From sequence record ON645936.1: 64,000 bases of DNA; one strand, given 5' to 3'. The first letter of the stretch is position 1. Each line of letters opens with the position of its first letter. The notes beneath the pieces are model-generated. The model did not search any database. It saw only the letters and a list, made by a program, of their open reading frames with translations, and was not told the origin of the DNA. Below, piece by piece: positions 29,683-41,690 of this stretch. The position numbers and the translations under genes are program-made. This DNA is from Escherichia phage N2.

Positions 29683-30003
29683 TTATTCTTTAAATCTAAT
29701 CAATTTATTCATAGACTTTGAAACTTCTGCACGAACCTCATGTAGGTTTTTAAGCTGTTCAAGACGTTGCTCATAGTAAGCAATTTCATCTTCTTCGAGA
29801 CAGTCCTGTGAATCTTCTTTAAGATAACGTGCGTAGTCCTGGAAAGCTTTACGGACTACTTCTTGGAAGTCATCAAGACTTTGAATTTTCTTAGGAGCAA
29901 CAGATACACGACGAGGGGCAGTATAATACTCATAACCAAACCCTGCGCTTAATTGAGCCATTAATATTTTTCCTCTGGTTGGAACACTGCGCGACAAGCC
30001 CAC
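29683..30003 (-). CDS. hypothetical protein (vs.3 position)
   Basis: 106-aa ORF; real start may be internal (MAQLS). Confidence 0.4.
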
Positions 30004-30227
30004 ATACTGGCTTCTTTGAGTTTCGTTTTAGCAATAGTTAACTGATCGAGGCTTTCGGCGTAATTCTTCGCAAGTTCATCATCTTCACAGCTATCAAATG
30101 CTTCCCAAAATTCATCGTATAAAGCATCAAAGATAAGTCCTAAACGAACTTCAGCGTCTTTGATGGCATTCACTTTACCGATTTTCTTTTCAGTATGTGG
30201 CTTATAACCCTTAATATCTTCAATCAT
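29961..30227 (-). CDS. hypothetical protein at the vs.4 position (candidate Acb2-like cyclic-nucleotide sponge)
   Basis: 88-aa ORF, second gene upstream of regB; assignment is positional and by size only. Confidence 0.35.
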
Positions 30228-30441
30228 ATTTTACTTCCTCGCCAGTACCCAAATCATATTCAACTAAACGAATAGGTTCATGAATGCCATATCCCTGAAC
30301 AGAAATTTCTGTCGTAGGATAAATTCCATCAATATCACCCATATTCCATGCTTCATTAAATTGCTGTTCGCCTGAATTACTAAACCACTCGGCGAAAGCA
30401 TTTAGCACATCTTCAGAACCTTCAATAATTATCTTTGCCAT
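30220..30441 (-). CDS. hypothetical protein
   Basis: 73-aa ORF. Confidence 0.4.
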   Translation of the reverse strand: MAKIIIEGSEDVLNAFAEWFSNSGEQQFNEAWNMGDIDGIYPTTEISVQGYGIHEPIRLVEYDLGTGEEVKYD

Positions 30442-30803
30442 TACAGACTCTCAGTAAAGGTACGAGCGATAACGTCGCGCTGCTGTTCCGGAGTCAGAGA
30501 GTTAAAGCGAACTGCATAACCGGATACACGGATGGTCAGCTGCGGATATTTTTCCGGATGCTTAACTGCATCTTCCAGAGTTTCACGACGCAGAACGTTA
30601 ACGTTCAGGTGTTGACCACCTTCAATTTTAACTGTAGGCTGTTGCTCAATTTCAATTTCACGGGCATGCAAACCGTAGAAAATTTCTGGGTCTACAAAAG
30701 AGTCCTCTTTAAAGGTTTTAGAAACAATAATTCGTGCTTGAATACCATCTTCAAAATAAATAGTACCTTTATGTGTGCCTTCAAGAATTTGATATGCTTT
30801 CAT
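30441..30803 (-). CDS. autonomous glycyl-radical cofactor (GrcA/YfiD-like)
   Basis: 120 aa; C-terminal [13 protein letters not shown] glycyl-radical signature. Confidence 0.7.
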
Positions 30804-30809
30804 ATAACC

Positions 30810-31190
30810 TCAATTAGAAAATAAATTTATCCAAGATTGTTCTTTAATTAAAAATGGCTCAGAATCATATGCCATTAAACTTTGGGTGATTAGTCCTTTA
30901 AAAGGCCCATCAATAAATTCCATGGTAAAATATGGAATTTTATTCATTAACTTTGCATTAGGAGCAGTGCACAAAACTCTGCATCCTTTGAATACACCTT
31001 TTTGTAATTTGTATTGCTTAGGATAAAATTCGCTCAAGACGTTGTTATTTGCCAAAATTTCAAAATGATTCACCAATTTATTTTTAATAGTTTTTGGCGA
31101 AAAATAAAGATATTCGAAAAGTTGCGTATCTGTCATCATTGCATTCCAATTACGAAAAACTGCGGACGAGTAATACCACCAATGCAGCAT
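30810..31190 (-). CDS. hypothetical protein
   Basis: 126-aa ORF; start probably internal near 31139. Confidence 0.4.
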   Translation of the reverse strand: MLHWWYYSSAVFRNWNAMMTDTQLFEYLYFSPKTIKNKLVNHFEILANNNVLSEFYPKQYKLQKGVFKGCRVLCTAPNAKLMNKIPYFTMEFIDGPFKGLITQSLMAYDSEPFLIKEQSWINLFSN

Positions 31191-31726
31191 TTACTATTGC
31201 AGCAGTGTTGCACAGTTTCAATATGAATATCGTAAATTTTATCCATATCAGGAGATTTAACAGGCTCATCGATTATATACAAAATTCGAGAAAGCGATAA
31301 ACCTCTGAACTTGCTACCTCTATTACCAACAAAACTACGGACAGAATCAGTAAATAAACGGAATCGAATATCATCGCTAGAATAACGAGAAAATTCTTTT
31401 TTAATGCGGCCCGCAGAAATTTTAGCGTAAGCTGAAGTATTAGAAAGAACAATAACTGTTCCACCGTCATACAACCAATTAGCGGCAAAATTAGTTACTG
31501 CAGTTGATTTACCAGATTGTCTGCCACCATCTAAACGAAGTGTACAATATTCTTTAAATAAATGCGACGAATCAGGTACATAAAATCCACTATTACAAAT
31601 TTCTTCTACTCTAGCATCAGAATGGTGTGTAAAAGCATTCATCAGGGATAGATAAGGACCAGTTAAAAATGTTCTCATTTTATTCTCTCTAAATTTGGGC
31701 CATTCCATGGCGCATGAATTGTCCAT
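31136..31726 (-). CDS. small P-loop NTPase
   Basis: 196-aa ORF; Walker A GGRQSGKST, Walker B ILYIIDEP. Confidence 0.5.
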   Translation of the reverse strand: MDNSCAMEWPKFRENKMRTFLTGPYLSLMNAFTHHSDARVEEICNSGFYVPDSSHLFKEYCTLRLDGGRQSGKSTAVTNFAANWLYDGGTVIVLSNTSAYAKISAGRIKKEFSRYSSDDIRFRLFTDSVRSFVGNRGSKFRGLSLSRILYIIDEPVKSPDMDKIYDIHIETVQHCCNSKCCIGGITRPQFFVIGMQ

Positions 31727-31821
31727 TTCTGTATTTACCCATTACCGCACTTGGGCTCGACCTTATTACAGGTTGGCGGGAATCCCTCATAGAATCATGA
31801 GGTCCAGGTTGTTCCCATGTT

Positions 31822-31892
31822 ATTTGAATGTAAATATTTTTGCCTTAATACTTATACCAGTGTGGCTTCATTAAAATTTTTTCATCGAGTCA
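31822..31892 (-). pseudogene. denV remnant (start codon fused to a diverged copy of the last ~70 nt of denV)
   Basis: minus strand ATGACTCGATGAAAAAATTTTAATGAAGCCACACTGGTATAAG... aligns with the denV start plus the denV 3' end at 32263-32335; reads M-T-R-stop. Confidence 0.5.
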
Positions 31893-31918
31893 TTTTACCT
31901 CTCTAAGTAATTATGAAT

Positions 31919-31948
31919 ATACTATCACAATTTTAGGAGAAAGTAAAC
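31919..31948 (-). promoter_or_regulatory. T4-type early promoter (GTTTAC-N18-TAGTAT); near-identical copy of the denV promoter
   Basis: sequence at 31913-31948 is ~90% identical to 32701-32737. Confidence 0.5.
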
Positions 31949-31950
31949 TG

Positions 31951-40257: not shown

Positions 40258-40482
40258 TTATTCACCTTTAGAAATTTTATCCATAACAATAGCGATTAAA
40301 CCAATTAAAAATGCTACTACAAGTGAAAACACATTTTCTGCTGTAGTCAATAATCCGCATATAAATCCAACAAACATTGAAAAACTAAATGCAGAAGCAG
40401 AAATTGCAATAGCAACATTTCGAATTAATTCACAGCGTTTCATTTTTATTCTCCTCAGTAGTTGATAGGGTAATAATATCAC
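40258..40482 (-). CDS. hypothetical small membrane protein
   Basis: 74 aa with two hydrophobic segments; downstream of promoter 40473-40502. Confidence 0.45.
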   Translation of the reverse strand: MILLPYQLLRRIKMKRCELIRNVAIAISASAFSFSMFVGFICGLLTTAENVFSLVVAFLIGLIAIVMDKISKGE

Positions 40483-40502
40483 TACCCCATCTAAAAGTAA
40501 AC
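40473..40502 (-). promoter_or_regulatory. T4-type early promoter (GTTTAC-N18-TATTAT)
   Basis: minus-strand hexamers with 18-nt spacer. Confidence 0.5.
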
Positions 40503-40514
40503 TGTTTTTATAAA

Positions 40515-40823
40515 CTATTTTATTCCGCGTGATGCAATTGTATTCTGTCGTTTAGCACCAGTTTGTTTAAAGTCATGATTGTCGATTTGATCGGTACGAG
40601 CAACTCCGAATGATGATTTAATCTTAGCTTTAGATCCTTTAGTTATAGAAATAAACATCTCGGAAGCCCCTTTCTTAAAGTCCGAAGCAATTACTTCAAC
40701 ACCGTTCTTAGCAAGTGACTTCAGAATTGCCTCCGCGTACTCATCATCAAGACTCGCTTGAGTATTAATAACGAATGTCTTTGGCGCAGCCGCTTCATTG
40801 ATAAATTCTTTAAATGTTTTCAT
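40515..40823 (-). CDS. internal-protein-like packaged protein (IPI-type) with capsid-targeting sequence
   Basis: 102 aa; N-terminus MKTFKEFINEA (CTS with I-N-E cleavage motif); basic. Confidence 0.6.
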   Translation of the reverse strand: MKTFKEFINEAAAPKTFVINTQASLDDEYAEAILKSLAKNGVEVIASDFKKGASEMFISITKGSKAKIKSSFGVARTDQIDNHDFKQTGAKRQNTIASRGIK

Positions 40824-40853
40824 TTTATTTTCCTAATTAATTTTGATGAGATA

Positions 40854-40883
40854 ATAGTACCACAACCCTATTTAAAAGTAAAC
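40854..40883 (-). promoter_or_regulatory. T4-type early promoter
   Basis: GTTTAC-N18-TACTAT on minus strand. Confidence 0.5.
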
Positions 40884-41156
40884 TCATTTTAAATAAATTG
40901 CGTATTTTTTATAACCCGCTGACTCATGACGAAGACCCTTATCATTAGCAAAACGCTCAATGTTGTTAATTTGATTCTGGTCAAGTTCAGAGATGTCAAA
41001 CACGAAAAAGTTACGTTTGTTACCAACTGTTACATAGTCAGTTAAATCAATATCATATAGGTAATTGATGTCAGCAATCAAAGTCTTGACAGCTTTGCTA
41101 ATTTTTACTTTTTCGTTAAAAGTAGCTTCATTGATAAATTCTTTAAATGTTTTCAT
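40884..41156 (-). CDS. second internal-protein-like packaged protein with capsid-targeting sequence
   Basis: ORF 40884-41168; start taken at MKTFKEFINEA to match the CTS. Confidence 0.55.
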   Translation of the reverse strand: MKTFKEFINEATFNEKVKISKAVKTLIADINYLYDIDLTDYVTVGNKRNFFVFDISELDQNQINNIERFANDKGLRHESAGYKKYAIYLK

Positions 41157-41192
41157 TTTATTCTCCAATCACCCATTTATTTTGATAGGGTA

Positions 41193-41222
41193 ATAGTATC
41201 ACAACTAAAACCCCGTGTAAAT
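41193..41222 (-). promoter_or_regulatory. T4-type early promoter (ATTTAC variant)
   Basis: ATTTAC-N18-TACTAT on minus strand. Confidence 0.4.
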
Positions 41223-41234
41223 AACTTTGTGAAA

Positions 41235-41690
41235 TTATTTTAAATCATCTGCCCAATCGAGTTTAAGAGGCTCTTTGTATTCACGATCTAATACGACCGG
41301 AATTTGTACATCACCGCTAAATGATAAGGGCCCAACATTATAAGACAATGTTATATGCGGTGTGTAATCATCAAAATCATGTGTAGCACCTAGTGCCCGC
41401 GCATACATGTGTCGACAGCGCAGATATTCAGAATCTAGTACAAGTACAAGAGTCGATCCATCTTGTGTTTTCCATACTTCTAAATGTCCAGAAGAAGCTA
41501 CTTCAAAACTTCCGCTTGATGGAACATATGGAACATTTACTCTTGAATAACATATGGTCGAATGAATTTTTTCTCTAGGAACTGGATTAGGAACACGTAA
41601 AGAGCGCTGGAGTTCTTCCAGCGCATCAAGTGTTAATTCTGAAAACTTAGCTGCTACATAAAGACCCGTTGAAAAGTCTTTAAATTCCAT
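41235..41690 (-). CDS. 57B: 2H phosphoesterase gp57B (Acb1-type anti-CBASS cyclic-nucleotide nuclease)
   Basis: 151 aa; two H-x-[ST]-x motifs (HSTI, HITL) typical of the 2H fold; immediately downstream of 57A as in T4. Confidence 0.7.

Follow-up and report, generated by a model that had tools for sequence, protein, structure and literature searches.

Phages that escape CBASS immunity can do so by destroying or sequestering the cyclic nucleotides through which it signals, and T4 is described as carrying a gene for each strategy. We ask here whether a T4-like (Tequatrovirus) phage, Escherichia phage N2, carries the same pair in a form likely to work as in T4, and whether it might also produce signals of its own. 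The window analysed is a 64,000-nucleotide stretch of its genome (ON645936.1). From the evidence below, we consider it nearly certain that this phage carries the T4 anti-CBASS gene pair at the usual T4 positions and with T4-type function; no feature of the sequence speaks against this.

Position and gene order of acb1 and acb2

The two genes lie on the minus strand at opposite ends of the interval 29961-41690, and the features relevant to them are as follows:

29961..30227, minus strand: acb2 (T4 vs.4 homologue), an 88-aa cyclic-dinucleotide sponge as predicted by homology
30220..30441, minus strand: vs.5, directly upstream of acb2
41235..41690, minus strand: acb1 (T4 gene 57B homologue), a 151-aa 2H phosphoesterase predicted by homology to degrade cyclic oligonucleotide signals
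41349..41357, minus strand: second catalytic H-x-T motif of Acb1, H112-I-T114 (H113/T115 in T4 numbering)
41556..41564, minus strand: first catalytic H-x-T motif of Acb1, H43-S-T45 (H44/T46 in T4 numbering)
41690..41932, minus strand: 57A, the tail-fibre chaperone gene, directly upstream of acb1; product 97.5% identical to T4 57A

The roughly 11 kb separating the pair consists of unrelated T4-type genes that are not part of the feature, namely vs.5-vs.8, ipII, denV, e, nudE, e.2-e.8, eight tRNAs, segB, trna.2-4 and internal head protein genes. Around acb2, the order regB, vs.3, vs.4, vs.5, vs.6, vs.7, vs.8 is that of T4, and acb1 sits downstream of 57A and gene 1 as its T4 counterpart does. 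The stop codon of 57A and the start of acb1 overlap in TAATG, as do gene 1 and 57A, which suggests translational coupling along gene 1-57A-acb1. At the other end, the acb2 start is overlapped for 8 nt by the end of vs.5, a GAGGA Shine-Dalgarno sequence precedes the acb2 ATG by 8 nt, and TAATG overlaps recur at the vs.6/vs.5 and vs.4/vs.3 junctions. A promoter and terminator scan of the 29-43 kb region stayed at chance level (60 sigma-70 promoter sites against 53.9 +/- 9.1 expected) and thus carries no information on transcription units.

Acb1, a 2H phosphoesterase identical to that of T4

The first-pass annotation had assigned the 57B product to the Acb1 type from its two 2H motifs and had proposed alignment to T4 Acb1 as a check; the assignment holds up. 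The translation retains the HxT/HxT catalytic tetrad (HST at residues 43-45, HIT at 112-114), defined in T4 as H44, T46, H113 and T115 (PMC9117128), and the protein matches the full profile of the Pfam Acb1 family PF23474 (E 2.6e-60; 202.7 bits with a cut-off of 27 bits; profile positions 1-144 of 144). Furthermore, all 151 residues are identical to residues 2-152 of T4 57B/Acb1 (NP_049750.1). The one difference lies at the start: T4 Acb1 is annotated from one codon upstream (ATGATG), whereas the phage studied here has ATA at that codon, so that translation must begin at T4 Met2 and residue numbering is shifted by one. Given the Pfam score and this identity, the reading frame is not a chance ORF.

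Homology to a protein of known structure establishes the 2H phosphoesterase fold. Specifically, the Acb1 of Erwinia phage FBB1 (PDB 7T26 and 7T27), an orthologue from another phage genus, gives a full-length match (E 4.1e-62, residues 8-148) in which the catalytic motifs align despite many substitutions and a one-residue alignment gap. Neither PADLOC nor NCBIfam scans matched Acb1 or Acb2; the silence of PADLOC is unsurprising, because it models the proteins of defence systems.

The protein falls in PHROG 755, and here the public names point elsewhere. That family carries the description 'RNA ligase', RefSeq labels T4 57B in the same way, and the label is repeated in many phage records. LigT-type enzymes are also members of the 2H phosphoesterase superfamily, and one could therefore imagine a protein that is mainly an RNA ligase or a LigT-like RNA 2',3'-cyclic phosphodiesterase, with cyclic-nucleotide cleavage as a side activity. 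We regard this as highly improbable. The 'RNA ligase' labels are names copied between records, with no experimental origin, and Pfam now curates a separate Acb1 family, in which the protein scores far above the cut-off. In contrast, the identical T4 protein was isolated through its cGAMP-degrading activity by activity-guided fractionation, is inactivated by H44A/H113A (PMC9117128), and cleaves several CBASS signals, with T4 sensitised to CBASS when 57B is inactivated (PMC9117128, 10.1101/2025.11.20.689424). Indeed, T4 57B gains conditional importance when the host expresses CBASS (10.1101/2025.11.20.689424). Read as an anti-CBASS enzyme, Acb1 would act as a metal-independent 2H phosphoesterase, positioning the cyclic oligonucleotide over its HxT/HxT tetrad and cleaving the 3'-5' bond 3' of adenosine.

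Acb2, a predicted sponge with a variable hairpin tip

The 88-aa ORF at the vs.4 position had been put forward as a possible cyclic-nucleotide sponge from position and size. That proposal now goes beyond both, because the product is 94% identical to the crystallised T4 protein and keeps the published functional residues. Alignment to Vs.4/Acb2, the comparison suggested earlier, gives 83 of 88 residues identical to T4 Vs.4/Acb2, a protein of equal length with the same gene neighbours (PDB 7UQ2, E 6.1e-53). Similarity to the Acb2 family is likewise present in Pfam PF24729 (Acb2_Tad1_hairpin; E 3.8e-19, 69.1 bits with a cut-off of 27 bits, profile positions 1-58 of 58) and in PHROG 717 (E 1.3e-31), which PMC10097602 uses as the family of Vs.4 homologues. 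Judged by the Pfam score and the identity to T4 Vs.4, this too is no chance ORF.

All of the ligand-contact, hexamer-interface and screen-identified residues of Vs.4 listed in PMC10097602 are conserved in the 88-aa protein, and the contact and interface positions are common to it and T4. Retained are Y8, H11, T12, K23, L29, F33, L60, A66, A73, S74, A77, R79 and F82. Among them, the base-stacking Y8 and F82 and the polar-contact H11, K23 and R79 are invariant in an eight-sequence alignment, and L29, F33, A66, A73 and A77 belong to the hexamer interface. At 94% identity to the crystallised protein, Acb2 would be expected to form a hexamer and to bind cyclic dinucleotides at nM levels. Each hexamer would offer three pockets at dimer interfaces, each taking one cyclic dinucleotide clamped between Y8 and F82 and contacted by H11, K23 and R79; 3'3'-cGAMP would be bound at tens of nM, the signal being sequestered and not destroyed.

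The Acb2 of Pseudomonas phage PaMx33 belongs to the same family and shares the sponge mechanism for cyclic dinucleotides. It is about 24% identical to T4 Acb2, and its second pocket takes cyclic trinucleotides, which the T4 type does not (PMC10312549). In T4-Acb2, Y37, A57, L60, D61 and T64, plus T68, are said to block cA3 binding (PMC10312549). The protein studied here has T4-type residues at the PaMx33 trinucleotide site, retaining all six of these, and is expected, as in T4, to accept dinucleotides and not trinucleotides.

Five substitutions distinguish this Acb2 from T4 Vs.4: E14K, L44F, N46S, C50D and F52L. It is conceivable, if very unlikely, that they change or abolish ligand binding and leave the gene functionally different from T4 Acb2. 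No phage-collection record holds an identical protein, the closest matches being 98.9% identical; furthermore, E14K, which is absent from the eight aligned homologues, lies two residues past T12, a helix-cap residue at which T12I inactivates Vs.4 (PMC10097602). Against this, the published functional residues are all intact, and the other four changes fall in the hypervariable hairpin-tip block in the middle of the protein, which varies freely between genera in the alignment, whereas hardly any variation is seen in residues 1-33 and 70-88. The same F44, S46, D50 and L52 occur in RB6 vs.4 (AIT73400.1; 87 of 88 identical), whose sole difference is E14K. Positions 13 and 14 are themselves variable, with EE in T4, DD in two other homologues, DE in one and KE in RB16. 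A protein that works as T4 Acb2 does is the reading we keep. Perhaps, though we give it only a slight chance, the hairpin tip (residues about 34-69) and the private E14K are evolving under host pressure; if so, the changes could alter ligand range or allow escape from a host factor that recognises Acb2 itself, and functionally distinct Acb2 alleles would exist among T-even phages.

The NrdC.11 nucleotidyltransferase and the meaning of the pair

The first-pass annotation also remarked that, if a nucleotidyltransferase (NTase) cassette at 22345-23816 is signalling-based, the phage would both make and erase cyclic-nucleotide signals. The gene concerned is:

22345-23358: NrdC.11 homologue, a 337-aa NTase of the RlaP family (PF10127), 96% identical to T4 NrdC.11

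The idea draws on the Pol-beta-type NTase N-terminus of the protein (GS...DVD) and on the 153-aa membrane protein encoded directly before it. We consider it very improbable, and comparison with known families does not support it. T4 has the same gene, and has a mobD homing endonuclease where the membrane protein stands, which shows that the membrane protein is no fixed partner of the NTase. The NTase passes the PF10127 cut-off (43.9 bits against 23 bits, with the match confined to its N-terminal 130 residues), and RlaP is its sole Pfam match, with neither SMODS nor Mab-21 found at E <= 0.01; PADLOC (CBASS) and NCBIfam gave no match, and all 120 relatives among the matches listed carry PF10127 only. 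Characterised RlaP enzymes add one or two NMPs to RNA 3'-OH ends, and RlaP cluster 5 includes T4 NrdC.11 (PMC12776372). By the family cut-off and T4 orthology, the protein is probably an RlaP-family RNA 3'-end nucleotidyltransferase; it is not a CD-NTase and does not belong to the anti-CBASS pair. Sequence searches of the PDB gave no meaningful match to the NTase, as a single sequence or as a profile, and no match to the adjoining 161-aa ORF. The AlphaFold2 model is poor (mean pLDDT 52.7, below 50 over the N-terminal 107 residues, from a 16-sequence alignment), and the relatives listed are too alike, at 76-96% identity.

What the phage offers, then, is the T4 pair itself. Identity, family membership and residue conservation are observed for both genes; their enzymatic activity, ligand binding, hexamer formation and role in vivo would follow by analogy with experiments on the T4 and FBB1 proteins. 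The pair is already known and ordinary, as T4 itself is described as carrying both genes, and relatives of Acb2 and Acb1 occur in 1231 and 1470 public phage records, respectively. Public records of close relatives mislabel both genes ('RNA ligase', 'distal tail protein', 'deoxynucleoside kinase', 'hypothetical protein'), which makes correct naming useful. The main value of the finding lies in annotation and host-range prediction, and it raises no new biological question. Between them, Acb1 and Acb2 would deal with a broad set of CBASS signals, and a phage with both intact should resist many CBASS systems. Systems of the Panoptes type, by contrast, sense nucleotide sponges, and the same phage is expected to be sensitive to them: the Acb2 sponge should expose it to Panoptes (OptSE), which fires once decoy nucleotides are soaked up and whose dependence on Acb2 has been described (PMC12657218).

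Acb1 and Acb2 of phage N2

29961-30227, minus strand: acb2, 88-aa ORF, the T4 vs.4 homologue (Acb2, a cyclic-dinucleotide sponge)
41235-41690, minus strand: acb1, 151-aa ORF, the T4 57B homologue (Acb1, an anti-CBASS 2H phosphoesterase)

The 151-aa protein is identical at 151/151 positions to residues 2-152 of T4 57B, matches the Acb1 profile PF23474 along its entire length (E 2.6e-60) and also matches the crystal structure of FBB1 Acb1 from an Erwinia phage (7T26/7T27, E 4.1e-62), by which homology the 2H phosphoesterase fold is established. The two H-x-[ST]-x motifs reported in the first-pass annotation are indeed present (H43-S-T45 and H112-I-T114), and its assignment of the product to the Acb1 type is borne out by these matches. 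Acb1 was itself defined from T4 57B, purified via its cGAMP-degrading activity (PMC9117128); in a T4 transposon screen, 57B was dispensable on K-12 and depleted on a CBASS-expressing host (10.1101/2025.11.20.689424). The sole difference from T4 lies at the start, where ATGATG spans the 57A stop codon in T4 whereas the window has ATAATG, so that Acb1 here begins at the second Met of T4 57B and residue numbers shift by one.

For the 88-aa ORF, previously proposed as a cyclic-nucleotide sponge from position and size only, the grounds are now much stronger, and the Acb2 identity is supported as the main interpretation. The protein shares 83/88 residues with T4 Vs.4 and matches the Vs.4 crystal structure 7UQ2 (E 6.1e-53), PF24729 (Acb2/Tad1 hairpin, E 3.8e-19) and PHROG 717 (E 1.3e-31), the family through which the original Vs.4 paper gathered homologues of that protein (PMC10097602). 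T4 Vs.4 is a hexamer binding three cGAMP with a Kd of ~30 nM; base stacking is provided by Y8 and F82 and polar contacts by H11, K23 and R79, the hexamer interface consists of L29, F33, A66, A73 and A77, and loss-of-function changes fall at T12, S74 and A77, with L60F the fourth screen mutation recovered (PMC10097602). All of these residues are unchanged in the window protein. T4 Acb2 binds cyclic dinucleotides and neither cA3 nor cAAG, a specificity attributed to Y37, A57, L60, D61 and T64 (PMC10312549); since these too are all unchanged, the window allele should be a dinucleotide-only sponge.

Five substitutions separate the window allele from T4 Vs.4 (E14K, L44F, N46S, C50D and F52L). An alignment of eight homologues, drawn from five genera, shows almost no variation at residues 1-33 and 70-88 and free variation, with indels, in a block at ~34-69; 4/5 of the substitutions fall inside this block, and positions 13-14 also vary (EE, DD, DE, KE). 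The vs.4 product of phage RB6 is 87/88 identical to the window protein and has the four block substitutions in common with it. That the variable hairpin tip has a function, to which the variability itself is the sole pointer here, seems very improbable.

Genomic setting and expression

At ~20-44 kb the window has 32-37% G+C, with genes on the minus strand. Megablast of 29000-42700 matched 1136 phage records, almost all of them from T-even relatives; the top hit, Escherichia phage Killian, aligns over 95% of the query at 94% identity, so the same phage is not among the records of the phage collection. Compared gene by gene with T4 (NC_000866, 52-77 kb), the order is kept: nrdC.10, nrdC.11, rI, tk, vs, regB, vs.3-vs.8, denV/ipII, e, nudE and e.2-e.8, then the tRNA cluster with segB, trna.2-4, internal proteins, 57B, 57A and gene 1. 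acb2 and acb1 form the two ends of the interval 29961-41690, and the DNA separating them is ordinary T4-type content, functionally unlinked to either gene.

Both genes are tightly packed against their upstream neighbours. TAATG overlaps occur at the gene 1/57A and 57A/acb1 junctions and also at vs.6/vs.5 and vs.4/vs.3, while vs.5 overlaps acb2 by 8 nt, with GAGGA lying 8 nt before the acb2 start codon; this arrangement suggests translational coupling. A generic sigma-70 promoter scan of 29-43 kb found sites no more frequent than chance.

Several loci at 27-41 kb differ from T4. The Tk.4 macro-domain protein (27799-28278, minus strand) is 58% identical to T4 Tk.4, its neighbours being far less diverged, and weakly resembles a DarG ADP-ribosyl glycohydrolase model, its score of 27.8 bits being far under the cut-off of 250. 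In T4, vs.8 is followed by denV, ipII, ipIII and e, in that order; here vs.8 and denV are separated by the gene for an ipII-like internal protein (31951-32253), ipIII is absent near 31886-32734, and denV is 77% identical to that of T4. Shigella phage SH-2 has the window's ipII/denV order plus one more internal-protein gene. The ipII-denV block is bracketed by repeats of ~63 bp (31886-31948 and 32672-32734), through which it may be shuffled as a cassette. In place of T4 ipI there are two different genes for internal head proteins (40515-40823 and 40884-41168, minus strand; PHROG 2667 and PHROG 7673), neither with a match in NC_000866, 52-77 kb; both products carry MKTFKEFINEA at or near the N-terminus (compare MKTYQEFITEA in the ipII-like protein). 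T4 IPI is an anti-restriction protein, and by analogy the replacements could be alternative injected anti-defence proteins. Two further minus-strand ORFs lack counterparts in the same T4 region: one of 176 aa in place of e.7 (36197-36727, PHROG 6869) and one of 171 aa between the tRNA cluster and trna.2 (39039-39554, PHROG 2290), at whose position Killian has an ORF of equal size. ARAGORN calls a 94-nt tRNA-Lys (ttt) at 37331-37424 (minus strand), unsupported by the Rfam tRNA model, at the site of the stable RNAs rnaC and rnaD in T4; the remaining eight tRNAs correspond to those of T4, the one with a CAT anticodon to T4 tRNA-Ile.

The predicted nucleotidyltransferase at 22345-23358 and its neighbours

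23355-23816, minus strand: 153-aa membrane protein (PHROG 944), upstream of the nucleotidyltransferase, at the site of T4 mobD (HNH homing endonuclease)

The first-pass annotation had also raised a signalling role for the cassette at 22345-23816, which would give the phage both a signalling module and the means to erase such signals. The predicted nucleotidyltransferase is 96% identical to T4 NrdC.11. In Pfam, at E <= 0.01, it matches RlaP alone (PF10127, 43.9 bits, cut-off 23) and none of the CD-NTase families (CBASS cyclases), and PADLOC returned no match. PF10127 alone is likewise carried by 120/120 listed relatives. Characterised members of the RlaP family, in which T4 NrdC.11 has been placed, extend RNA 3'-OH ends by one or two NMPs and take part in restoring damaged tRNAs (PMC12776372). 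The predicted structure model of the protein is of poor quality. Because T4 has mobD at the site of the membrane protein, the latter is not a fixed partner. Taken together, these observations leave the idea of a phage-borne signalling module unsupported.

Nearby, the membrane protein is followed by two y05I-like paralogues (PF24449 and PF24448; 23819-24904, minus strand) in place of the single T4 copy, mobD.1. A 161-aa ORF between nrdC.10 and nrdC.11 (21733-22218, minus strand), absent from T4, matches PHROG 832 'RNA polymerase ADP-ribosylase' (E 1.4e-23), with no match in Pfam and PDB searches; it occurs in T2 at 94% identity and at >90% in ~43 phage records, and shares 26-32% identity with ADP-ribosyltransferases from other T4-like phages, whose records name the genes ADP-ribosylase, NAD--protein ADP-ribosyltransferase or modB. 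A 239-aa ORF (19922-20641, minus strand), which T4 lacks at this site, shares 27% identity with segB, a GIY-YIG homing endonuclease of T4, and 99% with the same-position ORF in phage W143.

Occurrence and implications

By tblastn against 50,697 phage records, Acb2 relatives occur in 1231 and Acb1 relatives in 1470, 498 of the latter at >=99% identity. Labels vary: Killian's acb2 (962-1228) is annotated 'deoxynucleoside kinase' and its acb1 (13318-13773) 'distal tail protein', and 57B in RefSeq T4 is still 'RNA ligase'. T4 carriage of both genes has already been discussed (PMC10312549), and the feature, the anti-CBASS pair of T4 carried by one of its relatives, is a known one. The Panoptes defence system is triggered by T4 Acb2 (PMC12657218), so Panoptes is predicted to detect the window phage as well.
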